The position numbers were made by a program, and so were the translations under genes. Below are positions 1 to 29,481 of a DNA stretch of 29,481 nucleotides, in pieces. Source of the DNA: a plasmid. The notes under the pieces are model-generated. The model made no database searches and was not told where the DNA came from. It saw only the letters and a list, made by a program, of their open reading frames with translations. Position 1 is the first letter of the stretch. Each line of letters begins with the position of its first letter. The stretch lies in the sequence record NZ_CP114643.1; one strand, 5' to 3'.

Positions 1-74
1 TTTTGTTAAATTTATATAGAAAATAAAGTAGATATTTACTTTTAAATAAAAGTTATGTATTATGATGAACGTAA

Positions 75-92
75 ATATCTATTTCTAAGGAG
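75..92 (+). promoter_or_regulatory. Conserved upstream element (ATATCTATTTCTAAGGAG; imperfect copy of the TAGATATCTA palindrome + AGGAG RBS) 6 nt before the PF57-like start
   Basis: Seen directly. Near-identical 18-21 bp element also at 2937..2957 (+) and 29409..29429 (-), each ending in AAGGAG just upstream of an ATG. Confidence 0.5.
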
Positions 93-98
93 CTTAAT

Positions 99-797
99 AT
101 GCAAAATACAAACCTTGAGGTTAAGGCCCATACAAAACCATTAAAGAAATATCATAGTAGATATTACAAAATAATATCAATACTTAGATACTTTCAAAAT
201 AATGCACTTAAATACAATCAAACAGCAATTTTAAATGCATTAAACACTTTTCTATTGAAAGATGGTCTTAAACAAATTACACTTAGAACTTTAAGAAAAG
301 ATTTAGCATTTCTATGCAATAAAGGCATTATTAAAAAAACTTTATTAAGACTGGGTGAAGGGAACGGAACATATATAAGATACACAGTAACTAAATACAG
401 TGTTAAAAATTTAAAAAAAATACTCAAAGCTAAAGAAGAAATTGTAGAACATGACGCAAACTCAATATACAAATTCACAAAAGAAACACAGAAAAAATAT
501 TACTTACAAAACAAGGAGATTAAAATTTTTAAACGTAAAAATGCAACCAAAAATGTCAGTCAATATATAACTAATAATAGATATATAAATAATAAAGAAA
601 AAAAAGAAAGAGAAACAAAAAATGAAGAAATAAACAATACAGATTATCTAATAAGGAATGTGTCTAAATGGAAAACAATGAGATATTTAGACAAAATAGA
701 AGAAAATGAAAACAAAAAAAGATACGAAGATAATATGCTAAAAACTAAAAAATGGTTAGAAACCTCAAATATAGAAAATAATACTTACAAGATTTAA
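99..797 (+). CDS. PF57/62-like plasmid replication/maintenance protein (first gene of the Borrelia four-gene partition cluster)
   Basis: 232-aa lysine-rich ORF with RBS AAGGAG. Position and size match the PF57/62 - PF50 - PF32 - PF49 order of Borrelia plasmids. N-terminus MQNTN is shared with the ERF-like gene at 2965. Confidence 0.5.
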   Translation: MQNTNLEVKAHTKPLKKYHSRYYKIISILRYFQNNALKYNQTAILNALNTFLLKDGLKQITLRTLRKDLAFLCNKGIIKKTLLRLGEGNGTYIRYTVTKYSVKNLKKILKAKEEIVEHDANSIYKFTKETQKKYYLQNKEIKIFKRKNATKNVSQYITNNRYINNKEKKERETKNEEINNTDYLIRNVSKWKTMRYLDKIEENENKKRYEDNMLKTKKWLETSNIENNTYKI

Positions 798-827
798 GGG
801 ATAGAAAACAAATTTTAAGGAAAAAAC

Positions 828-1400
828 ATGAAAAACTCGTTGAAAAAATTAAAGGAGAAGAAGTCAGAAATTAAGTTAAAAGAAAAAATAAAAAATACTT
901 TCTCTAAAATAGAAAAAGTAAAAACCAAAACAATGTATCACACAAAGGTATTTAATGATCTTTTTACTTTCGGAATTAGTCAAAAAGAAGAAGGCAAATT
1001 CTTTATAGCCTTAAGAGGTTTGTTTGACAATGAAAATAGAAGTACATTTCACTTGTTTAGCATTAAGGATCGTAATGACAAATTTTTGGGCATGTTTTAT
1101 GGATTTAGGAGACTCAAGAACTCAATTCTGCTCAGATATAAAGATAACATAAAACAATCTAGTGAAGTTATAACAATATATAAACCCTATTACATAGAGT
1201 TTAGATTTAAAAAAGGTAGTATCTTTTGTTATATCAAAGCAATTCATGCCTTAACTAAAAAAGAAAAATTAGAAAAAAATTATGCTCAGAATCTATTGGA
1301 AAGAATTATTACCTTAGAAAACGAGGTGTACAAATTTTATAATAAAAAAAGACCAGATGGAGGGATTATAACTAAATGGATAAAAAAAAACCAGAAATAA
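828..1400 (+). CDS. PF50-like plasmid maintenance protein
   Basis: 190-aa ORF immediately upstream of the ParA gene and overlapping it, RBS AAGGAAAAAAC. Synteny with the Borrelia PF50 position. Confidence 0.45.
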   Translation: MKNSLKKLKEKKSEIKLKEKIKNTFSKIEKVKTKTMYHTKVFNDLFTFGISQKEEGKFFIALRGLFDNENRSTFHLFSIKDRNDKFLGMFYGFRRLKNSILLRYKDNIKQSSEVITIYKPYYIEFRFKKGSIFCYIKAIHALTKKEKLEKNYAQNLLERIITLENEVYKFYNKKRPDGGIITKWIKKNQK

Positions 1401-2140
1401 TCACTATTGCATCAATTAAAGGTGGTGTTGGGAAAAGTACAAGTGCCATCATATTTGCAACTTTATTAGCAAAGAAATACAAAGTATTATTAATTGACAT
1501 TGATACACAAGCATCAACTACTAGTTATTATCATGATAAACTGATAAAAGATAATATTAATATTGTAAATATAAATATCTATAAAGTCTTAAATGAAACA
1601 TTAGATATTAACGATTCAATCGTTAATATAAGGGACAATCTGGATTTTATTCCAAGTTATATTCATTTACATAAATTTGTTAGAGAATCTATTCCTTTAA
1701 AAGAATTAAAACTAAAAGAATGCTTATTTTTTTTGAAAAAGAAATATGACTATATAATATCGGATACTAATCCTAGTTTGGATGCTACATTAGCTAATGC
1801 TTTAATATGCAGTAATTATATAATAGTACCAATGACAGCAGAGAAATGGGCAGTTGAAAGCCTAGAATTAATAGAATTTTATATGAAAGAATTAAGACTA
1901 AAACTTACAATTTTTATTCTTATAACAAGATTTAAGAAAAATAATACACATAAAGAATTACTGGAATATATACAATCTAAAAAGGGATTTTTAGGTTTTA
2001 TCCATGAAAGAGAAGATTTGAATAAACGAATATCAAAAAATGATATTTTTGATTTAAATAGAGATTATATAAGAGATTATGAAAGATCCTTGGATAACTT
2101 TCTAAATAAAAAATCAAATAGTGCGTTTAACGCACTATAA
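1376..2140 (+). CDS. ParA-type partition ATPase, Borrelia PF32 family
   Basis: N-terminus MDKKKPEIITIASIKGGVGKSTSAIIFA carries the deviant Walker A (KGGVGKST) typical of ParA/Soj and closely resembles Borrelia PF32 N-termini. Length 254 aa. Confidence 0.85.
   Translation: MDKKKPEIITIASIKGGVGKSTSAIIFATLLAKKYKVLLIDIDTQASTTSYYHDKLIKDNINIVNINIYKVLNETLDINDSIVNIRDNLDFIPSYIHLHKFVRESIPLKELKLKECLFFLKKKYDYIISDTNPSLDATLANALICSNYIIVPMTAEKWAVESLELIEFYMKELRLKLTIFILITRFKKNNTHKELLEYIQSKKGFLGFIHEREDLNKRISKNDIFDLNRDYIRDYERSLDNFLNKKSNSAFNAL
2118..2138. promoter_or_regulatory. Perfect 21-bp palindrome ATAGTGCGTT-T-AACGCACTAT (10-bp arms) covering the last codons of ParA, 13 bp upstream of the PF49-like start
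   Basis: Seen directly. GC-rich island in AT-rich DNA. Candidate centromere-like (parS-type) site, operator or hairpin attenuator. Confidence 0.5.
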
Positions 2141-2151
2141 AAGGAGCAAAA

Positions 2152-2724
2152 ATGAAAAATGTTGTTTTAAGTAGTAGAATTCTAGATACTAACGAAAATA
2201 CAAAATCATTTGAATTGAAAAATAAAAATTTGGATCGTTATAATGAATTAAAAGAAAAACTTAAACAAAATGCTAGAAAAGAAATTTATTATAAAGTAGA
2301 GAACATTAGGATTTTAAAAGAAATAAAAGATAATGAGTATTATAAATTAGATGGCCACAAAAATTTTGATAACTTTATTAAGAGTTATAGAATGGCTAAA
2401 ACTCAAGTGTATGCCTATTTAAGATTAGCAAATGCTATAGAAGAAGGAATGCTAGCAGAGCAGTATATAATTGAAAATGGTATTAATGAGTCACTTGCAA
2501 TGATAAAAAATAAGGAAAGTGTAAAAATAAAGAAGTTAAGACGAAATCCAATAAAACCGTTGAGGTTTCAACTTAAAAGCCAAGATAGTTATAATTTTTA
2601 TAAGGAGCATTCTAAATTTACAGCATTTATATTGGATACACTTTTTTCAAATGATAAGAATTATTTGGATAAATTATTCAAACAATATTCTGGTTTAAAG
2701 TTAAAAAATGATCAATTTAAATGA
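2152..2724 (+). CDS. PF49-like protein (putative ParB-analogue/BpaB-like DNA-binding partner of PF32)
   Basis: 190-aa ORF directly after ParA with RBS AAAGGAG. Fourth position of the Borrelia partition cluster. Family assignment is by synteny and size only. Confidence 0.45.
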   Translation: MKNVVLSSRILDTNENTKSFELKNKNLDRYNELKEKLKQNARKEIYYKVENIRILKEIKDNEYYKLDGHKNFDNFIKSYRMAKTQVYAYLRLANAIEEGMLAEQYIIENGINESLAMIKNKESVKIKKLRRNPIKPLRFQLKSQDSYNFYKEHSKFTAFILDTLFSNDKNYLDKLFKQYSGLKLKNDQFK

Positions 2725-2820
2725 GTAACTTGAAAAATTCTAATTATTTTGATACTATTCTGTCAGGTTGTATTGAATATTTTAATACTCCGGAAATAGT
2801 AATTTTATGAACTTTAGTAG

Positions 2821-2870
2821 GTTCTATTGATGATTCTAAATTAGAATTATGAATAGAACTTGCTTTTTTT
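2821..2870 (+). terminator. Putative rho-independent terminator downstream of the partition operon
   Basis: Imperfect 16-bp inverted repeat GTTCTATTGATGATTC / GAATTATGAATAGAAC (14/16 complementary, 7-nt loop) followed by TTGCTTTTTTT. Confidence 0.35.
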
Positions 2871-2936
2871 ATTTATATGTTTAATTTTTTTGTTAATAGC
2901 ATTGTAAATTTTTAGTTTTTGTTATACTATTTTTGT

Positions 2937-2957
2937 TAGATATCTATTTCTAAGGAG
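2937..2957 (+). promoter_or_regulatory. Conserved element TAGATATCTATTTCTAAGGAG (10-bp perfect palindrome TAGATATCTA + RBS) upstream of the ERF-like gene
   Basis: Seen directly. Same element at 29409..29429 (-) and a degenerate copy at 75..92. Preceded by GTTTTTGTTATACTATTTTTGTTA, which matches the window end plus window start. Confidence 0.5.
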
Positions 2958-2964
2958 TTTTAAT

Positions 2965-3957
2965 ATGCAAAACACAAATAATATTACAAAAACAAATATG
3001 CAAGATGTAATGAGTAACCAAGGTTTAATAATGCATGAGAAACAATCAAAGCTAGAATTTCTAAAGTCACTGCACACTTTACAAATGCAATTAAGTGGTG
3101 TAGGTAAGAACCTTACTGGCTTTGGATATAAATATCAAGATTTTAATGAAATAATAAGAGAAATCAAGCAAGTTATAAAAACCAATAATCTAGATATTGG
3201 ATTTACTCAATGCCCAACTATAAAAAATTTTGATGGTAACATAGTTAATGTTATTGAAACAACATTTTATAGTACCAAGACTGGGTATAGAGAATCATTT
3301 GATACACCAATATATACAGAAGAATTGAAATCTATAGAATGGAAAAGTAAAAATACCTTTCCTCAACTTGTAGGTTCATGCATAACCTACTTTAAACGCT
3401 ATGCACTTGTAGCTTACCTATCAATTGAGAGTGAGGTAGATACTGACGCAAATACCTTAGGGACTAGACAAGATGCAACAGAGGAACAGTCTAAGGGTGT
3501 AGAAATCCCACCTGTAGATGTGAAATCTAACAATTTGACTAATGATAAGGTAGAAAAAGACGTTAAATCTAATAATCCAGTATCTGTAAATAAAGCTAAT
3601 TCAATTAAGTTTAGTTGCTATAGGAGTCTTCTCATAGCAGCACGTAGAATGCATAAGTATTTGGTTAATAAACCATTTGATAGTATAGCGCAGATAAATG
3701 CATATTTAAATGCTATAAAGCTGGGAGATGATTCATCCTTATTAGAGTATTTTAATATGCATAAAGCCTTAAGGAATGTTAACTATTGGATAGAACTCAT
3801 AAGAGAATATATATTTAAGAATAATCATCTTATGAGAAGGTTAGATCAATTTGAGGCCTTTGTAGCCCTTATGCAACCTAAATACGAGGATAGTCCACTG
3901 AAATTATTTGGATTCTTGTCAGTAGAGAACGAGTTGAGATATTTATTTAATGCATAG
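2965..3957 (+). CDS. ERF-family single-strand annealing (recombination) protein
   Basis: Motif LSGVGKNLTGFGYKYQDFNEIIREIKQVI matches the ERF signature (FGKYKY..EDIL..V) of P22 Erf-like SSAPs. 330 aa. N-terminus MQNTNNITKTN is shared with neighbouring genes. Confidence 0.55.
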   Translation: MQNTNNITKTNMQDVMSNQGLIMHEKQSKLEFLKSLHTLQMQLSGVGKNLTGFGYKYQDFNEIIREIKQVIKTNNLDIGFTQCPTIKNFDGNIVNVIETTFYSTKTGYRESFDTPIYTEELKSIEWKSKNTFPQLVGSCITYFKRYALVAYLSIESEVDTDANTLGTRQDATEEQSKGVEIPPVDVKSNNLTNDKVEKDVKSNNPVSVNKANSIKFSCYRSLLIAARRMHKYLVNKPFDSIAQINAYLNAIKLGDDSSLLEYFNMHKALRNVNYWIELIREYIFKNNHLMRRLDQFEAFVALMQPKYEDSPLKLFGFLSVENELRYLFNA

Positions 3958-3976
3958 ATGATAATTTAACGCAACT

Positions 3977-3994
3977 AAGCCCCATTAGGGGCTT
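3977..3994. terminator. Bidirectional rho-independent terminator (AAGCCCC-ATTA-GGGGCTT) between convergent genes
   Basis: Perfect 7-bp GC-rich stem with a 4-nt loop. Flanked by A-rich sequence on the left and T-rich on the right. Lies between the + strand stop at 3957 and the - strand stop at 4000. Confidence 0.55.
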
Positions 3995-3999
3995 TAATA

Positions 4000-4362
4000 T
4001 TAATTTTTGAGTTTTGAATACCTCATGTATACAGACTGGGCAATAGGTTTAGTAATGCTGATGTAATCTTTGAGTAGCTTGATATTGAATAGTAATGAAT
4101 CAATTGTGTGATCATGTTTAAGAGTGGAAGAATCAAAGTAAGTAAATTTAGGATAGTTTGTGTCGTTAATAAACTTCTTTCTAGTTCGAGTTAAGAATAC
4201 TTGTAGGTACATGATGTAATCCGTAAGCTTAGCTTCATAAGTACTTAAGTCTTTAATAGTGTGTTTTATAGGAGGAGTTGGTTCATCCATTAGTGAGGCG
4301 ATAGTTGTGCAAGAGAATATAAATAATATAGCTAGATTGATAAATAAATAATTTTTTTTCAA
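4000..4362 (-). CDS. Small lipoprotein, last gene of the late operon (Rev-like position)
   Basis: N-terminus MKKNYLFINLAILFIFSCTT is a signal peptide plus lipobox-like Cys, typical of spirochaetal lipoproteins. 120 aa. Confidence 0.45.
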   Translation of the reverse strand: MKKNYLFINLAILFIFSCTTIASLMDEPTPPIKHTIKDLSTYEAKLTDYIMYLQVFLTRTRKKFINDTNYPKFTYFDSSTLKHDHTIDSLLFNIKLLKDYISITKPIAQSVYMRYSKLKN

Positions 4363-4363
4363 C

Positions 4364-4708
4364 TTATGACTCCTTTAATATCTTGATGTAAGTACTCATA
4401 ATTTTATTTCGCTTAGCTCTGAGTTGAGAGATGTATTTTAGATAATCATCATTATCGTAGTAATCACTTGAGTGTTCTATAATTTCGATGTTAAGGCGTA
4501 AGATTTCTTCAATCTCTGAGAGTAGTTTGATAGCTTCTTTTTGTTCCATTCTATTTATACTAGCTTCATAAAGGGAGTATACGTAATTAACTACTTTAAG
4601 GAAGATATTAGTGTAGTGAGCAGTATTTTTGTCTTGATATTTATTTTGTAAAATCTGTGTAAATTTAGTTAGGATTTCAATACCTAGTTTGGCATTACTT
4701 AAATTCAT
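4364..4708 (-). CDS. Hypothetical protein in the lysis region
   Basis: 114-aa ORF tightly coupled (4-nt overlap) to the upstream gene. Helical, charged composition. Confidence 0.3.
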   Translation of the reverse strand: MNLSNAKLGIEILTKFTQILQNKYQDKNTAHYTNIFLKVVNYVYSLYEASINRMEQKEAIKLLSEIEEILRLNIEIIEHSSDYYDNDDYLKYISQLRAKRNKIMSTYIKILKES

Positions 4709-5025
4709 TTATTCTCCTCCTCATGTGATGTAATGTACATAGGTAACCTCATGTTGTCTGGATTAGTATTAACTTGCAGTATAAATTGATTGATTTTGTT
4801 TTGAATAGGTTCTAAATCAGACTTTATTTGTGGAGTTAACGCATTATCTAGTATTTCCATATTTTTAGTGTAAATGTACGTGTATTGTGTGTAGAATTCC
4901 CTGAGAAGAGAGAATGCTTTATGAGAAGTCTCATCAAACGTACCATCCTTAAAATTAGAAAATGCATCAATTAAATTTGAGATTGCCTGTAAAGAATTCT
5001 CCAAATGTTTTCTGTCTAGTCGCAT
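4705..5025 (-). CDS. BlyB-like soluble lysis-accessory protein (positional call)
   Basis: 106-aa hydrophilic ORF immediately downstream of the holin-like gene and overlapping it, as for blyA/blyB on cp32. Confidence 0.3.
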   Translation of the reverse strand: MRLDRKHLENSLQAISNLIDAFSNFKDGTFDETSHKAFSLLREFYTQYTYIYTKNMEILDNALTPQIKSDLEPIQNKINQFILQVNTNPDNMRLPMYITSHEEENK

Positions 5026-9680: not shown

Positions 9681-10331
9681 TTACCTTTTAGGAATTGTTT
9701 CTATTTTTGTATTTTGTGTTTTGTAAATTTCTTTACTTATATCTAATCCATTTTCTTTCTTTAGTGAGGCATTATAATGAAATTTTTTTAGTGTAAATGT
9801 TTTAATAACTTCCATATTTAAACTAACTTCAACCTCATCAATGTAGGGTGTATCTTTAAATGAGATTGAATTTATAACAATTAAATCTTTAATACCAAAT
9901 GTTGGACTATAAGCAGTAAATAACACTTGAGCTTGAAGTCTTTGAGCAAGTTGTTCTTTTGCCAAATTCCCATCAAATGCTAAGAGTGCATTACCAAAAG
10001 GAGTAGATTTAAGCAAACTTATCATTTCTCTGTAAGGACTTGTGAGTATTCCTTTATGCAGAGATATAAATTCACCTGTTAGTGTGGGGTTATAGCTAAC
10101 ATATTCAGCTTTACGAGAGTAATAATTTATAACAGGTCTTTTTGTGCATGTGGTGTTATAAGTTCTGTTAAGTAGTTCATTCTTGGGTTGAATAAAAAAT
10201 AATTGGGGTAAGTATTGTAAACCTTTAAGATCAGGTCTTGGGAATAATAATATAAAATTATGATTGATAAATGATGATGATATTTGCGTTAATATATCTT
10301 TGATTAAGTTTAATATTTCAGCAGAATTCAT
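9681..10331 (-). CDS. Tail protein following the tape measure (Mu gpN / P2 gpU-like position)
   Basis: The annotated ORF extends to 10460. Start reassigned to the ATG at 10331 (MNSAEILNLIKDIL), directly after the tape-measure stop at 10342 and with a G-rich RBS. Confidence 0.3.
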   Translation of the reverse strand: MNSAEILNLIKDILTQISSSFINHNFILLFPRPDLKGLQYLPQLFFIQPKNELLNRTYNTTCTKRPVINYYSRKAEYVSYNPTLTGEFISLHKGILTSPYREMISLLKSTPFGNALLAFDGNLAKEQLAQRLQAQVLFTAYSPTFGIKDLIVINSISFKDTPYIDEVEVSLNMEVIKTFTLKKFHYNASLKKENGLDISKEIYKTQNTKIETIPKR

Positions 10332-10341
10332 ACCTAACCCC

Positions 10342-11607
10342 CTAAGGAATCCTAGTAGAGTCATCACCACCTGTATGAGTAGTATGCTTATAATATGCCC
10401 CAAGACTTGAACCACCATCACCACCAAGGAAGCTTGGTAGTATTGATTTAAGTTTGGCAAAAAAGTACTCTAGAGAAAATATGCTTTTAATATTTTGTAT
10501 AAGTGGATTAATAATATCCTTTTCTAAATCAAAGTTGCGTGTCCAAGTAATTATTTGCAGCAAGTATTTTGATATAGGTGTTAGAATATCACTAGTTATG
10601 TTTTTAAGCTCATCATCTAATTTTTTAATATCACTATGAGTATTTTCAACCAGTCCTAAGTTTTTTGTAAGACCCAGTGAGGTAAAATCACGTAGCATGT
10701 GTTCTAACATTTCAGAAGCAATGTTTGGGTCATAAATTACATTTGATTCATATCTGTCTTTAGAATATTCTAAGTATTTACTTCCAAAATCGTCAAATTG
10801 ACTCATTAAAGCAAATGTAGAGTCGCCCTTACCAGAGAGTAGGTCTGCTATTGATGATATGGCTTGGTCAGTTGAGAGTATACCACTGCCTTTAATTTTA
10901 GCTGCAAATTCAACGGCTTTTAAGAGTGTATCTTTGTTATGAATGCCCATGTTTTTAAGCGTGCTCTTAATAACTCCAGCTTTGTTTAAGAAGTCTTCTC
11001 TCTCTATTCCTGAGTGGAACGATTTAATGCCTTTGAGTTTACCAAGTATAGTTGTTTTCTCATCACTGTTAAAGAATTTAGAGCTAATTAGGGACATTCT
11101 CGCTTGATTTGATTTTTCTTTAAGAGCATTGATTGCGTATCTTGCAAAATTAGACATAGCATTAGATGCTACATTACCAATAGCTGAACCAATTGCAATA
11201 GGGACAGTGATACTTTTTCTAGCTTGTTTGATTAACTTATTTTTTTGTTTAGTATCTTCTTGTAAGTGTTTATATTCTAATGCTCGTAAATCTTTGGATG
11301 ACATAAGTGAGCGCTTAAAAGCTTCATATCGTGCTTTGTGAAATGTGTGACCTTTCTTAATTAGTTTTTTAGTCTCACTAAGTCTAAACTTTTCTATTCT
11401 TTCTCTTAAATGTTCATATTTGTTTTGTTTTTGAAGTGATAGTTTTTTTTCATTTAAATTATACTTAATAAATTCTTTACTACTTCCCAATGTTATTCGT
11501 TTAGGTGTAATTAAATGTTCTAGTTTGGAGATATCCTTTTCTAATGATTTACGTGTTGCTGCATGATCTAGTGTCCCTTTAAATTTAATTGTAAATTTAT
11601 CATTCAT
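10342..11607 (-). CDS. Tail tape measure protein
   Basis: 421 aa, largely alpha-helical and charged. Small-residue segment AIGSAIGNVASNAMSNFARYAINAL and Gly-rich C-terminus GGDGGSSLG. Lies immediately after the chaperone pair and before the baseplate genes. Confidence 0.5.
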   Translation of the reverse strand: MNDKFTIKFKGTLDHAATRKSLEKDISKLEHLITPKRITLGSSKEFIKYNLNEKKLSLQKQNKYEHLRERIEKFRLSETKKLIKKGHTFHKARYEAFKRSLMSSKDLRALEYKHLQEDTKQKNKLIKQARKSITVPIAIGSAIGNVASNAMSNFARYAINALKEKSNQARMSLISSKFFNSDEKTTILGKLKGIKSFHSGIEREDFLNKAGVIKSTLKNMGIHNKDTLLKAVEFAAKIKGSGILSTDQAISSIADLLSGKGDSTFALMSQFDDFGSKYLEYSKDRYESNVIYDPNIASEMLEHMLRDFTSLGLTKNLGLVENTHSDIKKLDDELKNITSDILTPISKYLLQIITWTRNFDLEKDIINPLIQNIKSIFSLEYFFAKLKSILPSFLGGDGGSSLGAYYKHTTHTGGDDSTRIP

Positions 11608-18409: not shown

Positions 18410-19096
18410 CTAAGCGCTTTTTTTAGTTTTAAGGTTATAAAACTGTTCTCGTATTGACTTGTAAGCATTAACAATAGAGATATTAAACTCATTAAAGTTA
18501 TGTGGAGTAAAATTAGGATCCAGTATTGATAATACTTCATTTGATAAGCTAAATTTAACATCTCCTTTAGAAGTGATTTTAGTAGCCTGTATTCTTTTCT
18601 TTATATTTACTTTAGCAAGATTAACAAGTTGTTCAAGCACCTTACCATCTAAATGCTGAGTGTCTCTTACCTTAGAAATAGCGTAAATATCATCAATTGG
18701 AACATATTTCCTAACAAGCTCTCTGCGTTGTGCCTGCATTATATCTTTGAGTGAGTATCCCTTAGAAAGAAGTGATTCTTTATTAAAATGTGAACTTAAA
18801 TGCTTACGTGCCAAATTATCAATCTCATTAATACGAGTAGCTTCAAGTAATAGTTTCTGCTCTTGTTCTTCTCGTGCCTGTGCCTCAGCAAGCTCACGTG
18901 AGATCCTTTCATTAATACTTAAATTCTTGTTAATGTGCTCTTTTTCTTTTTCTGCCTTATATACCCTGTATTCCTCATAATCTTTTAAATTTAAATTAAC
19001 ACTCTCTTGAGTGTTCCTAAGTTCTTCTGTGTTTGTATTAGTAGTATCTTGACTCTCTTGTGTCCTATCTAAATTTTCTTGTATTTCTTGGATCAT
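18410..19096 (-). CDS. Scaffold-like acidic coiled-coil protein
   Basis: 228 aa. Glu/Gln-rich helical N-terminal half (AEAQAREEQEQKLLLEATRINE). Lies between the portal candidate and the capsid region. Confidence 0.3.
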   Translation of the reverse strand: MIQEIQENLDRTQESQDTTNTNTEELRNTQESVNLNLKDYEEYRVYKAEKEKEHINKNLSINERISRELAEAQAREEQEQKLLLEATRINEIDNLARKHLSSHFNKESLLSKGYSLKDIMQAQRRELVRKYVPIDDIYAISKVRDTQHLDGKVLEQLVNLAKVNIKKRIQATKITSKGDVKFSLSNEVLSILDPNFTPHNFNEFNISIVNAYKSIREQFYNLKTKKSA

Positions 19097-20461: not shown

Positions 20462-21211
20462 TTACTTATTTAATAATGAATACACTATTGAGATTAATGT
20501 TAAGAATATCCCTACATTAAGTGTGATAAGAGTTCCAAACATCCATCCATGTAATTTTAATGTACCTTTAATTTCTGAGGTTGATTTGTCTATCTTACTA
20601 TCAAGAGTATTTATCTTACTATCAAGCTCAGTCCTATTTATTTCCATATCTTTTCTAACAAGAGCAACTTCATTACTTACAGAGGCAATCTCAGATTTTA
20701 AGCTTGTCTCTACTTTGTCAATTTTATTATCAAGATCTCTAATATCAGATTTTAAGCTAGCTTCAACATTGTCAATTTTATTATCAAGATCTCTAATATC
20801 AGATTTTAATTCAGTTCTAACATTCTCGATTTTATTATTTAAGTTATTCTCAACGTTATCTATTTTATTATCAAGTTCTCTAATATCGGCTTTTAAGCTA
20901 GCCTCAACGTTATCTATTTTATTATCAAGTTCATTAAATTTATTATCAATTTTATTATTAAGTTCAGTATGGACTGCTTTAATCTCAGATTTTAAACTAA
21001 CTTCTACCTTTTCAATATCAGATTTTAAGCTAGCTTCAACTTTTGCAAGCTTAATGTCAAAGTTTTCTTTAAGATACTCAATATCTTTGTGAGTAAGCTC
21101 ATTTTTATAATACCTGTAAGATAAATCCTCAGCAATCTCCTGATTAATACCCGCTTTAATAAGCTCAGCTAATACCATTTGTCTTGTAATAATAGTTTGA
21201 GGCAAACCCAT
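20462..21211 (-). CDS. Bdr-like repeat protein: coiled-coil KID-repeat protein with C-terminal membrane anchor
   Basis: Central array of 11/18-residue repeats (LDNKIDNVEASLKSDIRD x several). C-terminal hydrophobic segment WMFGTLITLNVGIFLTLISIVYSLL. This architecture (KID-containing repeats plus C-terminal anchor) is that of Borrelia Bdr proteins. Confidence 0.5.
   Translation of the reverse strand: MGLPQTIITRQMVLAELIKAGINQEIAEDLSYRYYKNELTHKDIEYLKENFDIKLAKVEASLKSDIEKVEVSLKSEIKAVHTELNNKIDNKFNELDNKIDNVEASLKADIRELDNKIDNVENNLNNKIENVRTELKSDIRDLDNKIDNVEASLKSDIRDLDNKIDKVETSLKSEIASVSNEVALVRKDMEINRTELDSKINTLDSKIDKSTSEIKGTLKLHGWMFGTLITLNVGIFLTLISIVYSLLNK
20640..21060. repeat. Imperfect tandem DNA repeats (unit about 54 bp, with 33-bp sub-units) encoding the Bdr-like repeat region
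   Basis: Seen directly, e.g. TCTCTAATATCAGATTTTAAGCTAGCTTCAAC.TT.TC.ATTTTATTATCAAGATC recurs at 20739..20790, 20791..20840, 20870..20925 and 20990..21050 with substitutions. Confidence 0.5.
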
Positions 21212-23325: not shown

Positions 23326-24249
23326 ATGAATAAATATATATATTGTTTAATACTATGTAGCATGTTACTTTTCTACTGTTGCGGAGAGCGTAATCCTATG
23401 CCAAAAGGGAATAACCTAACAAATGATTCTAATACTACCTTAAGTGCTGATGAACAACAAAAAGTTGATACTCTAATTTATGTATTTAAAAAAATGATAG
23501 AAAATGATAACCAATTGAACATGGAACAAAAAGAAAAATACAAAATGTTTGAAATTTGGTTATTAAAAGATACTCAAAAACAAAAAGAATTGGCTGATCA
23601 TTTTCAATATGTATACTATCTTTTAGACCAAGAAACAAAGCCACAACAAGCAAGCAACATACCTACTAAACAAATTATAGTAAATACTATTGATTGCGTA
23701 GCGTCAAATCAATGTGATGGCAGAAATGATGTGTACTCTTATCATCGAGATGATTCGATGACTGATGGAGAAAAAATAAAAAGTTTTTTTAGCAATCTTT
23801 TACACAATATACTTGACACACTTAAAAAGTCTAACAATAACATAAATACATATGAAGAAGTGTTTAAATATCTTAGATCAGAATTCGTTTCTCCAAACAA
23901 TGCTATTATTACGGGTTTATCAACCGATGAGACACTTAACAAAATGAGATTCAATAATCAACAAATAAAAGCAATAAGATTCTTGCAAGATAGTATAGGT
24001 AAGAGTAAACAACATATAAATAATTCAACATATATATCTTTTATAGTCTTAAGCAATTCAACGGTTAAACCGGCACTAGATTATATATATAATGAACTTT
24101 TAAAGTGTAATGAAAATCAACAAAGTATTGATAATTTTAATGAGGATTTACACAACTATTTTTGGTCTCTAGCTCCAAATAAAATTAATGATGAGACAAT
24201 AAAGCAATTACCAAATAAAGTGACTATTAAATGTGGAAATGCTAATTAA
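23326..24249 (+). CDS. Lipoprotein, 307 aa, function unknown (candidate lysogenic-conversion surface protein)
   Basis: RBS AAAGGAG. N-terminus MNKYIYCLILCSMLLFYCCGE is a signal peptide with lipobox-like Cys. Divergent from the late operon. Confidence 0.45.
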   Translation: MNKYIYCLILCSMLLFYCCGERNPMPKGNNLTNDSNTTLSADEQQKVDTLIYVFKKMIENDNQLNMEQKEKYKMFEIWLLKDTQKQKELADHFQYVYYLLDQETKPQQASNIPTKQIIVNTIDCVASNQCDGRNDVYSYHRDDSMTDGEKIKSFFSNLLHNILDTLKKSNNNINTYEEVFKYLRSEFVSPNNAIITGLSTDETLNKMRFNNQQIKAIRFLQDSIGKSKQHINNSTYISFIVLSNSTVKPALDYIYNELLKCNENQQSIDNFNEDLHNYFWSLAPNKINDETIKQLPNKVTIKCGNAN

Positions 24250-24730: not shown

Positions 24731-25165
24731 ATGAAAATAATTAATTTTGTTTTAATTTTATCACTATTAATTAGTAGTTGTGGACAATATGAAAATGCGA
24801 ATAATGTTTCAAAAAGGAGATCTAAGAGAGACATAAAGCAACAAATAGACGAGGTTAAAAAAACACCTGAGGAAGCATTAAAAGAGAAGTTAAGTGAAGA
24901 AGAAAAGGTAAATCTAGAGTTTTTAAAAGAAGCTTTAGGTGATGAGAGTAAATTTGGTCAGTTTTTAATCTTTGATGAATCTAAGATAAAATCTGCTCTT
25001 GAACATATAAAAGAACAACTTAAAAGTTGTAATGGTGATGCAGAAGGTGGTAAAGAAACGTTTAAAACTGTTGTACAAGGATACTTTAGCAAAATGGATG
25101 AAAGTACATTAAATGGGTTTAAAGATGGAGCAACAAGCACTTGTCAAGCAGGAGCAGGGGGATAA
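24731..25165 (+). CDS. mlp: Mlp-family (multicopy lipoprotein) lipoprotein
   Basis: MKIINFVLILSLLISSCG signal/lipobox, then EKLSEEEKVNLEFLKEALGDESKFGQFLIFDESKIKSALEHIKEQLKSCNGD...TFKTVVQG...GF...TSTC. This matches conserved Mlp blocks recalled from B. burgdorferi cp32. 144 aa. Confidence 0.75.
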   Translation: MKIINFVLILSLLISSCGQYENANNVSKRRSKRDIKQQIDEVKKTPEEALKEKLSEEEKVNLEFLKEALGDESKFGQFLIFDESKIKSALEHIKEQLKSCNGDAEGGKETFKTVVQGYFSKMDESTLNGFKDGATSTCQAGAGG

Positions 25166-25485
25166 ATAAAGAGATAAATAAAGCCAAAGGCTGAAAGTTA
25201 ATAAATAGGAAATTAAGAAAGAGAAATTAAGAAAGATGTAAAAAGAGAAAGCAGTATGAATTCCCAAAAAATAGAAAGAGCTAGAATAAATAGGAAGAGT
25301 AAAAGGATTAAGTAAATGGGATTAAGAAAGAGGGAAGTAAACAATTGGTTAACAATGGGTAAGAAGATAAGAATTGAGAAGAGAGACGTTACATTGCAAA
25401 GGTAAGAGATAAGGAAATGAAAAAAAGGTATGAAATAAAAGAATAGGAGATAAGGAAGTATATAAGTAAGTGTTAATATACTATA
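25166..25485 (+). repeat. About 320-bp purine-only (A/G about 85-90%) low-complexity tract on the + strand
   Basis: Seen directly. Degenerate AAGA/AAGAG/GGAA-type units, with only tiny ORFs on the + strand. Confidence 0.5.
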
Positions 25486-28057: not shown

Positions 28058-29401
28058 CTAACCAGCTAAAGTATCAAGAATGTAGGCATTATATGAGGAA
28101 CCCAAATTAAACCCAAGAGCATCTGTATTTATCAGATACCTAAACCTATCCTTAATAGCACGCTTGGTTGTATCTATTACAAATAGATTACCCCCAAACC
28201 TATAATTTACATGTTCACTAAATAAATTATCTTTAAACATATTATCTATGCATAATTTAAGCTTATCTTTAATAGATTTGGTTATCTTTGCAAGTTCTAA
28301 AGCATTATCTTTCTCAATTTTATTGATCTGTGCTTTCAAATAATTAATTTCAGTAAGGCTATCCTTTAAATGCTGAGTTTGTACCTCACCAATCTCAAGT
28401 TCAATAGACTCAACAAACTTCATAAATTCAACTTTGTAATCAAGTTCTGATAAATTTTTATATACACAACTATCCTCAAGCATACTTTTGATATGCTCAC
28501 TTAAAGTCTGTAAATCAATAGTTTGAATATCACCTTCAGCTCTTAAGGACTTACATATACGAACTACCTCAATATCTAATTCTTTGACAAATGACATTAC
28601 TTTACTTATAAGATCATTATTACGTATAATAACACAATTGATTGGTTCATTTCCTATAAGGAAGAATAGATTTCCTATACTTAAACCTGTGCATGCAAGT
28701 TGTAATTGTACTTGAATATAATACTTAAAGAAATACCTATTATCTAAGAAATTACCAGTCTTATTATATTCTAAAATAGCACTGCGAAGACTTAGATTGT
28801 CACTATATTTAATCTCAAGTACCTCTGCCTCTCCTTGAGCATTTACAAACCATCCATCAATTGTTAAGCCAACTAATGTACCCTCTCCATTGAACTTTTT
28901 AAAGTAGTTATACTTATCTATACCATTAGCATATTTATTCTTATGTATAACCTGGATATTATCAGAGTATATGCTAAGAAATTCATCAACTGCTAAATTT
29001 TCTAATACCTTACCTTTTCTCATGCTCAAATTATCTTCAAATGGCAATTCTTTACCTAACGATTTAAGCACCCTGGCAGTCATTAATTTTAAGGCGCTCT
29101 CTGCACCAATAAATATACTTCCTACCTCACTTGCACCCATACGCTTTAATGATTCTCTTTGAATACTAAAATCAATTTTGCTATTAAACTTAAAGAATTC
29201 ATTCTTGGAAATCTTTGGTAGTCTGCGTCCTATTCTACTTATCTTAGTTGTATTTTTGTGTGTGTTCTTAAGCTGTTCTTGACTTTGATTTACTAATTCT
29301 TCATAACCTTTAAACACTTGCTGACCATAGACACTAAGATGTCCCATCCCTACCTCTAATTTGTTATCATTTGTTTTTGTTATTTTATTTATACTTGTCA
29401 T
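28058..29401 (-). CDS. YqaJ/lambda-exonuclease-like (PD-(D/E)xK) recombination exonuclease with C-terminal extension
   Basis: Core TLVGLTIDGWFVNAQGEAEVLEIKYSDN fits the D...E-x-K catalytic signature of YqaJ-type viral recombinases. Start placed at ATG 29401 (MTSINKITKTN), which has RBS AGGAG and the conserved upstream element, rather than at the ORF-track start 29464. Confidence 0.5.
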   Translation of the reverse strand: MTSINKITKTNDNKLEVGMGHLSVYGQQVFKGYEELVNQSQEQLKNTHKNTTKISRIGRRLPKISKNEFFKFNSKIDFSIQRESLKRMGASEVGSIFIGAESALKLMTARVLKSLGKELPFEDNLSMRKGKVLENLAVDEFLSIYSDNIQVIHKNKYANGIDKYNYFKKFNGEGTLVGLTIDGWFVNAQGEAEVLEIKYSDNLSLRSAILEYNKTGNFLDNRYFFKYYIQVQLQLACTGLSIGNLFFLIGNEPINCVIIRNNDLISKVMSFVKELDIEVVRICKSLRAEGDIQTIDLQTLSEHIKSMLEDSCVYKNLSELDYKVEFMKFVESIELEIGEVQTQHLKDSLTEINYLKAQINKIEKDNALELAKITKSIKDKLKLCIDNMFKDNLFSEHVNYRFGGNLFVIDTTKRAIKDRFRYLINTDALGFNLGSSYNAYILDTLAG

Positions 29402-29408
29402 TATTAAA

Positions 29409-29429
29409 CTCCTTAGAAATAGATATCTA
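29409..29429 (-). promoter_or_regulatory. Conserved element TAGATATCTATTTCTAAGGAG (palindrome TAGATATCTA + RBS) upstream of the exonuclease gene
   Basis: Reverse complement of 29409..29429 is identical to 2937..2957. The following coding sequence (ITKTN...) also parallels the ERF-like gene. Confidence 0.5.
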
Positions 29430-29481
29430 ATAAGAAATAATATAGCAAAAATTGTTTTTGTCAAAGTTTTTGTTATATTAT

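Follow-up and report, generated by a model that had tools for sequence, protein, structure and literature searches.

The sequence record NZ_CP114643.1, analysed here over its whole length of 29,481 bp (hereafter the window), is a complete circular plasmid of Borrelia miyamotoi belonging to the cp32-like prophages, and our subject is a short sequence, the box, that is repeated in the leaders of three of its genes. Over the window length the plasmid is 99.9% identical to cp30-2 of B. miyamotoi MN18-0001 (circular, 29,483 bp, with its first base at window position 99), and it carries prophage genes for a terminase, a portal protein, a holin, Bdr and Mlp. Pfam matches and the RefSeq annotation of the near-identical cp30-2 place the maintenance cassette PF57-PF50-PF32-PF49 at 99-2724 (+), with a PF57-like gene (Borrelia_orfA) at 99-797, PF50/DUF226 at 828-1400, the ParA gene PF32 at 1376-2140 and PF49 ('Plasmid_parti', an analogue of BpaB/ParB) at 2152-2724, all on the plus strand. 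Pfam also identifies the gene of an ERF single-strand annealing protein at 2965-3957 (+) and that of a YqaJ+DUF244 exonuclease at 29401-28058 (-). On the circular molecule, the exonuclease gene and PF57 thus lie next to each other and diverge, with only about 120 bp between their boxes. The replication initiator of these plasmids is taken to be PF57 (PMC9039534, PMC10406323).

The 21-mer TAGATATCTATTTCTAAGGAG has one exact copy at 2937-2957 (+), placed 7 nt ahead of the ERF start codon at 2965, a second exact copy at 29409-29429 (-), before the exonuclease start codon at 29401, and a third with one mismatch at 72-92 (+), where the sequence TAAATATCTATTTCTAAGGAG (beginning TAAATATC) precedes the PF57 start codon at 99 and has its Shine-Dalgarno AGGAG at 88-92. 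These are the only three sites in the window at up to 3 mismatches, and none of 100 dinucleotide shuffles gave any match, so that the shared sequence reported in a preliminary description of this DNA is real. A repeat finder recovered it independently, as a direct repeat (72-95 / 2937-2960, 92%) and as an inverted repeat (72-99 / 29402-29429, 93%). The longest inverted repeat of the window has its right arm at 2930-2997 and its left arm at 29369-29436 (68 nt, 82% complementary), and the two arms bracket the maintenance cassette, together with the candidate RNA gene considered below, across the origin of the record. The similarity also continues into the coding sequences, as the same description had claimed. 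The ERF segment MQNTNNITKTNMQD and the exonuclease segment MTSINKITKTNDNK share 64% nucleotide identity over codons 2-15, which ranks 1-2 among the 496 gene pairs of the window (mean 33%, standard deviation 8%), and PF57 and ERF both begin with MQNTN, with 10/12 matching nucleotides over codons 2-5 (rank 1/496 when all pairs are compared).

A promoter can be proposed for each of the three genes. That of PF57, TTTACT-17-TATTAT at 35-63 (+), is predicted from a consensus scan only, and a TTTACT...TATAAT layout is also found upstream of PF57 in Lyme cp32 plasmids. For ERF, an extended -10 promoter, TTGTAA-15-TGtTATACT at 2902-2928 (+), was picked out tentatively by eye; the scan did not report it, its spacer being 15 nt. 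The predicted exonuclease promoter, TTGACA-16-TATTAT at 29437-29464 (-), agrees with the consensus at 11/12 positions, and promoters of this type (TTGgCAAAAATAGTTTTTGCTATATA) are conserved before both DUF244 and ERF in Lyme cp32 plasmids. The distance from the predicted -10 to the start of the box is 8 nt for PF57 and for ERF and 7 nt for the exonuclease, and the box would therefore span the whole 5' untranslated region down to the Shine-Dalgarno sequence. Between the -35 and the -10 of the exonuclease promoter there is also an inverted repeat, CAAAAA-N3-TTTTTG at 29441-29458 (-), conserved as GCAAAAATAGTTTTTGC before DUF244 and ERF of Lyme cp32 plasmids, which may be a separate, replicon-independent operator.

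The Box Is Specific to the Replicon

For comparison, we used plasmids or cassette regions of B. miyamotoi, B. turicatae, B. puertoricensis, B. hermsii, B. coriaceae and B. burgdorferi B31, the relapsing-fever plasmids being taken individually from PLSDB, and we added about 25 Lyme-group cp32 loci from a DUF244-alignment search of genome contigs, which returned mostly Lyme-group cp32. The 10-16 nt lying just 5' of the Shine-Dalgarno sequence are alike among the PF57, ERF/RecT and DUF244 leaders of one replicon and different between replicons, a pattern seen in nearly every one of about 30 cp32-family replicons of Lyme and relapsing-fever Borrelia. The three copies share ...CTATTTCTAAGGAG in the window type (found also on B. 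turicatae pcp30-1), ATACrCTTTATAGGAG on Yekat-17 cp30-7, TACATTATAGGAG on MN18-0001 cp29 and AwTAmCCATAGGAG on B31 cp32-1; the shared box of p410 cp30-2 is TTCATCTAAAGGAG, and that of B. lusitaniae is AATAGATGTTCGGAGG. The case of cp29 is instructive, as it comes from MN18-0001, the very strain that carries cp30-2. From the ATG onward its ERF coding sequence equals that of the window, but its leader is different, which indicates that the box belongs to the maintenance cassette and not to the gene downstream. Moreover, the presence of the three-copy layout in both the Lyme and the relapsing-fever lineages makes it older than the diversification of the cassette types, and its agreement within replicons together with its divergence between them calls either for a replicon-specific factor acting in trans or for concerted evolution. 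In this regard, the earlier idea that one shared regulator links the replication/partition operon to the phage recombination genes comes out strengthened, as the box co-varies at all three leaders across these replicons.

Two loci depart from the pattern. On B. sinica cp32-5 (10001-11338), the DUF244 leader has the box of another replicon type (that of locus L011 in our set) and DUF244 itself is broken into three open reading frames, a natural mismatch of box and cassette that coincides with gene decay. On MN18-0001 cp26 (3467-3627), ERF is annotated from an internal ATG, and an intact leader of the cp29 type (TACATTATAGGAG) with a normal start lies upstream; this leader does not match the box of cp26 itself, TTCACAAATTAGG, and the cp26 ERF may be recombinant or decaying.

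The box had also been described as holding a perfect 10-bp palindrome with the geometry expected for the operator of a dimeric repressor. The palindrome, TAGATATCTA, is indeed perfect at the ERF and exonuclease sites, and only there. The PF57 copy reads TAAATATCTA in the window, in B. turicatae pcp30-1 and in B. miyamotoi lp70, and ATAATATCTA in B. coriaceae lp30; B. turicatae DUF244 has TAGATACCTA in place of the palindrome. Positions 3 and 7 of the palindrome vary within the box type (compare TAAATATC in PF57 and TAGATACC in B. turicatae DUF244), the core that is invariant within the window type, CTATTTCTAAGGAG, lies outside its left half, and among the related replicons compared no other box type has a palindrome within the box. 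Dyad symmetry is thus kept neither among the copies nor among relatives, which gives the dimeric-repressor mechanism no support. The position of the copies, all of them sense-oriented and directly next to the Shine-Dalgarno sequence, also speaks against it, as does their complement, which is found inside a conserved unit resembling a small RNA (sRNA) gene. Just upstream of the box, A/T-only palindromes of at least 10 bp are found in 16/82 distinct leaders, against about 5.5 expected from shuffles, and they may mark a protein site beside the box. In the Lyme cp32 leaders, as seen on B31 cp32-1 at 19075-19092 and 18752-18770, these are TTATTAATAA before PF57 and ATTTATAAAT before ERF/DUF244, and they include the TTATA motif published for BpaB.

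A Complementary Fourth Copy in a Candidate Small RNA

A fourth, complementary copy of the box lies just past PF49, at about 2730-2875 (+), within a unit made of a promoter, a 5' hairpin, a seed and a terminator. The predicted replicon-specific sRNA would extend over 2765-2875 (+), as judged from its fold, covariation and a covariance model. Its predicted promoter at 2730-2758 (+), found by a consensus scan and bearing a TG-extended -10, consists of TTGAAA (2730-2735), a 17-nt spacer and TGaTACTAT (2750-2758), and it is positionally homologous to the TTGATT-N17-TATACT that precedes the sRNAs of B. burgdorferi B31. A predicted 5' hairpin, GUAUUGAAUAUUUUAAUAC, at 2770-2788 (+) is followed at 2787-2803 (+) by a single-stranded seed or anti-box, ACTCC-GGAAATAG-TAAT, the core of which (CUCC-GGAAAUAG at 2788-2799, also given as CUCCGGAAAUAG) pairs with CUAUUUCU and the GGAG of the leaders around a 2-nt bulge, and the unit closes with a terminator stem at 2816-2864 (+) and a run of seven T from 2865. 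The 114-nt window RNA folds with -32.1 kcal/mol (z = -5.3), leaving the seed unpaired, and among five window-type sequences from four species compensatory changes affect 9/32 pairs, with G.U pairs on the sRNA strand.

This fourth copy had escaped an ungapped 13-mer search, which gave only chance matches in coding regions at 1324 (-) and 18682 (-), because of a 2-nt indel, and it was found by reading the spacer between PF49 and ERF. A whole-window RNAduplex scan returned only the trivial antisense of the three sites, and no Rfam family matched anywhere in the window at E up to 1. Another candidate, a cis-antisense promoter inside PF57 (TTGATA-18-TATGAT, 180-151 (-)), was set aside, as it is inseparable from coding conservation and the hits of the scan are at chance level (25 promoter-like matches against 23.6 expected).

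Counterparts of the unit are present among catalogued transcripts. In Table S1 of Popitsch et al. (2017), each of the seven B31 cp32 plasmids has an intergenic sRNA on the minus strand in the gap between ERF and PF57, namely SR0979, SR0982, SR0984, SR0990, SR0996, SR0999 and SR1004, for which the text of the paper states no target or function (PMC5216591). SR0979 reads CAGCGUAGUUAUUUAAACAUUUUUCAGUUUUGACUAC-CUAUGGUAAUU-UGC..., that is, a 5' hairpin and then the reverse complement of the cp32-1 box with the GG of its Shine-Dalgarno sequence, and the presence of this anti-box rules out that SR0979 is an unrelated intergenic RNA. SR0979, SR0982, SR0984 and SR1004 each combine a hairpin with an anti-box complementary to the box and Shine-Dalgarno GG of their own plasmid. 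The seed CCUUAUAUUUG of cp32-3 faces the leader box ACAAATATAAGG, the seed CCUUAUUUUGU of cp32-4 faces ACAAAATAAGG, and the seed CCGUUUAUAUG of cp32-9 faces CATrTAAACGG. The mapped 5' ends of these four RNAs lie 6-8 nt past a conserved TTGATT-N17-TATACT, and a GC-rich hairpin with a T-run follows downstream.

When each replicon was searched with its own box, a complementary fourth copy appeared in most Lyme loci and in nearly every replicon. It lies downstream of PF49 and on the PF49 strand in relapsing-fever plasmids, between ERF and PF57 and on the strand opposite PF57 in Lyme cp32, and always directly after a 5' hairpin and ahead of a terminator. The unit, with a matching PF57 box, is also found on linear, non-prophage plasmids of relapsing-fever species that have no intact ERF or DUF244, such as B. 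miyamotoi lp27 (23640-23791), B. hermsii lp31 (25160-25310), B. coriaceae lp30 and B. turicatae lp31, in all of which the seed matches the leader of their own PF57. These linear plasmids carry vsp/vlp genes and are not prophages, so the system is not specific to cp32 phages.

A covariance model was built from 20 members, none of them of the window type, and in their terminator stem compensatory changes affect 13/19 pairs. Many pairs of this stem are G.U, which would be A.C mismatches on the other strand. In the same line, transitions between the leaders and the fourth copy are mostly compatible with G.U pairing (21 against 6 raw cells, p = 0.003, the cells not being independent and a few rows being misaligned). 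Run with filters off over 801 nt, the model matched 2752-2873 (+) over its full length with 26.4 bits (E = 5.7e-4; next best 8 bits), and this weak match puts the window seed in the columns of the variable seed of the family. With default filters, short-PF57 contigs of B. persica gave E = 4e-4 and 3e-3. The unit of the window is thus likely, but not proven, to be homologous to the B31 sRNAs, and the case rests on architecture, position and covariation.

Seeds Are Predicted to Pair Preferentially with Their Own Leaders

Pairing was evaluated with RNAduplex energies, either for the 18-nt seed or for the whole candidate region without flanking promoters and leaders. For the whole region against the PF57 leaders of 28 replicons, cognate pairs averaged -20.5 kcal/mol and non-cognate pairs -11.8 (standard deviation 2.8); the cognate leader ranked first in 19 replicons and second in 8, which none of 20,000 permutations equalled. 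In this test the window scored -17.1 against a row mean of -11.9 and was first in both directions. For the seeds, cognate pairing was far stronger than non-cognate (about -14.5 against -5.9 kcal/mol overall), with -14.8 against -5.8 kcal/mol for the PF57 leader (rank 1 in 16/16), -14.2 against -5.9 for ERF/RecT (rank 1 in 15/17) and -14.3 against -5.9 for DUF244 (rank 1 in 16/17), with 0/20,000 permutations in each case. The window seed itself ranked first with its PF57 leader (-12.5 against a non-cognate mean of -7.2 kcal/mol), its ERF leader (-12.8 against -7.0, rank 1/17) and its exonuclease leader (-12.8 against -7.3, rank 1/17). Seed and box are unique to each compatibility type, and this includes the co-resident plasmids cp30-2, cp29 and cp26 of MN18-0001.

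A Model of Antisense Control and How Far It Holds

From these observations we think it rather likely that a replicon-specific sRNA of antisense type covers the ribosome-binding sites of three genes, one for the replication initiator and two for recombination. The shared cassette would be the 5' untranslated leader of three mRNAs, those of PF57, ERF and the YqaJ/DUF244 exonuclease, and the replicon-specific 10-16 nt that abut and include the Shine-Dalgarno sequence would be the target of an sRNA made from the same plasmid at about 2765-2875 (+). Its gene would have a promoter of its own and an intrinsic terminator and, between them, the 5' hairpin and the single-stranded seed 5'-CUCC GGAAAUAG-3'. 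By pairing with CUAUUUCU..GGAG, this seed would hide the ribosome-binding site and lower the translation, and possibly the mRNA stability, of the three genes in proportion to the dosage of the sRNA, the outcome being a negative feedback of the copy-number type. As seeds and boxes differ between compatibility types, each sRNA would act only on its own replicon. The pair of sRNA and PF57 persists on plasmids without intact ERF or DUF244, which makes PF57 the likely primary target; where the plasmid is a prophage, the recombination pair of ERF and exonuclease would be kept low by this seed as well. Transcription of the window unit, its pairing in vivo, repression and the setting of copy number or compatibility are steps that we infer.

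Several points weigh against this model. The sRNA of the window is a prediction, and its transcription is extrapolated from the B31 homologues, about which Popitsch et al. warn that peaks beside repetitive cp32 sequence can be mapping artefacts (PMC5216591). With default filters, the covariance model finds no match in the window or in window-type plasmids, and the match obtained otherwise is of only 26 bits locally, or roughly E = 0.02 when scaled to the whole window. The pairing of the window type comprises only 8 + 4 bp around the 2-nt bulge, and the window sRNA with the PF57 leader, taken alone, is not significant, since 164/1000 shuffles pair as well; the failure of this single-sequence test comes from the AT-richness of the sequence, and support for the window is accordingly comparative. 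Covariation as such would be equal if the fourth copy were a protein-binding DNA site, and only the strand-specific evidence (the G.U pairs, the strand of the B31 transcripts and the promoter/terminator unit) favours RNA. Furthermore, seed pairing accounts poorly for the likeness of the first codons. Read on the strand of the box, the fourth copy resembles a degenerate PF57 initiation region (for instance the AATACAA(A)CCT of PF57 codons 3-7 in the window), and the signal of the sRNA 5' hairpin against the first codons is weak and non-specific (-10.4 against -8.6 kcal/mol, rank 1 in 1/26). Finally, BpaB is reported to bind the 5' regions of ssbP and nucP, and its overexpression to raise, not to lower, their transcripts (PMC12472547).

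Boxes as Possible DNA Operators

The best surviving alternative, which we nevertheless hold to be unlikely, is that a protein of the cassette (PF49/BpaB, the ParB analogue, or PF57) binds the boxes as DNA operators or as centromere-like sites, the fourth copy being a fourth site. Such a protein would control its own maintenance operon and, together with it, ERF and the exonuclease, and it may coexist with the sRNA. The preliminary description had suggested the binding of a PF49-like protein, for which B. burgdorferi offers a published precedent. There, BpaB (PF49) is reported to bind the 5' non-coding DNA of ssbP and nucP both in vitro and in chromatin immunoprecipitation and to change their transcript levels (Chenail 2012, via PMC10016077 and PMC12472547), and SsbP is of the ERF family (PMC5663514); the gene pair is therefore the same as here, which makes a protein layer plausible. 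The cp32 parS has not been identified (PMC2938228), the box sits at about +1 to +20 of the predicted promoters, the usual position of an operator, the palindromes noted above are enriched just upstream of it, and changes in the box go together with changes in the cassette, the source of the variable proteins. Its distribution, with three leaders and a copy at the edge of the cassette, is also that of a site repeated in the par/rep control region and in other operons. On the other hand, every cp32 BpaB allele tested recognised one and the same erp operator, by means of a C-terminal region that is conserved (PMC2938228), a poor fit to a replicon-specific site, and the window palindrome is conserved in no other type and is imperfect at PF57 in every plasmid of the same type. 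The copies are all sense-oriented and in fixed register with the Shine-Dalgarno sequence, the GG of which is always part of the complementarity, and the fourth copy stands in a promoter-hairpin-terminator unit with strand-specific G.U pairs, from whose antisense strand a transcript is recorded in B31.

Possible Recombination between Leader Repeats

A second alternative, which appears quite improbable, gives the boxes no regulatory meaning at all. The copies would be kept alike by gene conversion between the repeats flanking the cassette, aided by ERF and the exonuclease, as a by-product of inversion or exchange. The 5' regions of ERF and exonuclease form the longest inverted repeat of the window, the corresponding repeat of B31 cp32-1 is longer than 100 nt and identical, and the cassette occurs in both orientations among relatives. 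The window has the order DUF244<-|PF57..PF49->ERF, and B. miyamotoi Izh-5 cp30-3 and all Lyme cp32 (e.g., B31 cp32-1) have ERF<-|PF57..PF49->DUF244; a review also notes that cassette orientation differs between B. hermsii and B. burgdorferi (PMC10016077). This suggests repeated inversion of the cassette by recombination between the leader repeats. The annealing-protein gene behind the leader can be ERF or RecT as well, and the similarity reaches into the first codons: between ERF and exonuclease it stretches from promoter to near codon 11, and the first codons of PF57 share part of it. More simply, this continuity can be read as an inverted duplication on either side of the cassette, in which ERF and exonuclease share promoter, leader and first codons and which allows the cassette to invert. 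The preliminary description had offered the shuffling of promoter plus leader as its own alternative, and this was partly right: an inverted repeat does flank the cassette and both orientations are found. As an account of the boxes, though, conversion meets the difficulty that PF57 and one of the partners have their copies in direct orientation, where recombination would delete the cassette, and that the similarity of PF57 does not extend beyond about 20-28 nt around the ribosome-binding site. The short box is moreover matched by a complementary seed in a separate unit, also on linear plasmids that lack the ERF/exonuclease repeat, and a neutral process predicts neither the register with the Shine-Dalgarno sequence nor the G.U bias.

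Least of all can the boxes be a generic strong leader or a chance match in AT-rich DNA, an idea of almost vanishing probability that is effectively refuted, since, even if AAGGAG is a generic Shine-Dalgarno sequence and AT-rich leaders look alike, the shuffles yield no 21-mer at up to 3 mismatches, the other genes of the window lack the box, and its part outside the Shine-Dalgarno sequence matches within replicons and differs between them.

At the junction where the window has ERF, Yekat-17 cp30-7 (3639-4907) carries RecT behind a leader of the same kind and with similar first codons (MTNINNITKTDMQ), so that annealing proteins without homology to each other are interchanged at one fixed place. 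Elsewhere in the window, tandem repeats with a 54-nt period at 20666-21060 (-) lie within bdr and are ordinary Bdr repeats.

Implications for Plasmid Coexistence

The copy-number control and the compatibility of the paralogous plasmids of Borrelia are described as largely unknown (PMC9039534, PMC10406323), and the parS and incompatibility sites of cp32 as undefined (PMC2938228, PMC10016077). An sRNA seed that co-varies with the ribosome-binding region of PF57 offers a concrete mechanism for both copy number and compatibility. The pairing would also give a function to catalogued B. burgdorferi sRNAs and account for the co-regulation of ERF (ssbP) and the nuclease gene (nucP) with plasmid maintenance, and it could find uses in curing specific plasmids and as a sequence-based marker for plasmid typing. 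We would go further only tentatively, with somewhat less than even confidence, in proposing that every PF57-type Borrelia replicon, whether a cp32-like prophage or an ordinary linear plasmid, carries a private 'address code' of sRNA and leader, with a seed fitting the ribosome-binding region of its own initiator and no other, that this is the long-sought determinant of copy number and compatibility, and that it acts as an immunity-like brake on prophage recombination. If true, 10-20 closely related plasmids could coexist in one cell through such a code. The cataloguing of the B31 sRNAs and the control of ssbP and nucP by BpaB were already known. In the literature searched, which leaves out most subscription journals, we found neither a link of the B31 sRNAs to the PF57, ERF or DUF244 leaders nor a proposal of antisense control of Borrelia plasmid replication. 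What is new here is the proposed antisense control of a plasmid initiator in a form that would be trans-encoded, seed-based and multi-target.

Comparison with Known Systems

The closest counterparts of the window unit are the SR0979-like sRNAs of B31, with which it shares a promoter of the sigma-70 type, a 5' hairpin, a variable seed starting with CC and a terminator. The full architecture can be followed in the window, from TTGAAA-17-TGaTACTAT through the hairpin at 2770-2788 and the seed CUCCGGAAAUAG to the terminator at 2816-2864 with its T7 run. The B31 RNAs likewise sit at the edge of the PF57-PF49 cassette, with seeds complementary to their own PF57, ERF and DUF244 leaders. They differ in lying upstream of PF57 on the opposite strand, the window unit being on the same strand and downstream of PF49; the terminator sequences are unrelated, and the score of the covariance model is weak.

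Antisense or countertranscript RNAs are known to control plasmid replication in several systems, among them CopA/CopT of R1, RNAII-repB of pMV158 and the ctRNA of repABC plasmids. They are encoded in cis, opposite their target and perfectly complementary to it, and a variable specificity region sets incompatibility. The candidate of the window resembles them as a small plasmid-encoded RNA complementary to the translation start of the initiator mRNA, with a specificity region that differs between relatives. Unlike them, it is not encoded in cis: its gene (2765-2875) and the PF57 leader (72-98) share the same strand at a distance of about 2.7 kb, and the consensus scan revealed no convincing antisense promoter inside PF57. 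Its seed is short and imperfect, and it has three targets, two of which are recombination genes.

A second parallel is c4, the antisense immunity RNA of the plasmid prophages P1 and P7, reportedly described by Citron and Schuster in 1990. This short RNA pairs with repeated sites that overlap a ribosome-binding site, and compensatory differences between the phages give heteroimmunity. A short RNA of a plasmid prophage, repeated targets at ribosome-binding sites and compensatory specificity are thus common to both cases. c4 acts on targets further upstream in its own transcript, through which an antirepressor is controlled, whereas here there would be three separate transcripts, including that of a replication initiator, and c4 and the window sRNA have no sequence relationship.

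Among proteins, omega of pSM19035 and KorB of RK2 are global regulators and at the same time centromere proteins, which autoregulate their own expression and co-regulate other operons. In B. burgdorferi, the control of ssbP and nucP by BpaB is reported to involve the same two gene classes beside the same cassette, co-regulated through their 5' non-coding regions by a factor of the cassette. BpaB recognises DNA through a short TTATA core, and the same DNA was bound by its tested alleles; unlike the BpaB site, the element described here is specific to the replicon, abuts the Shine-Dalgarno sequence and has an RNA complement.

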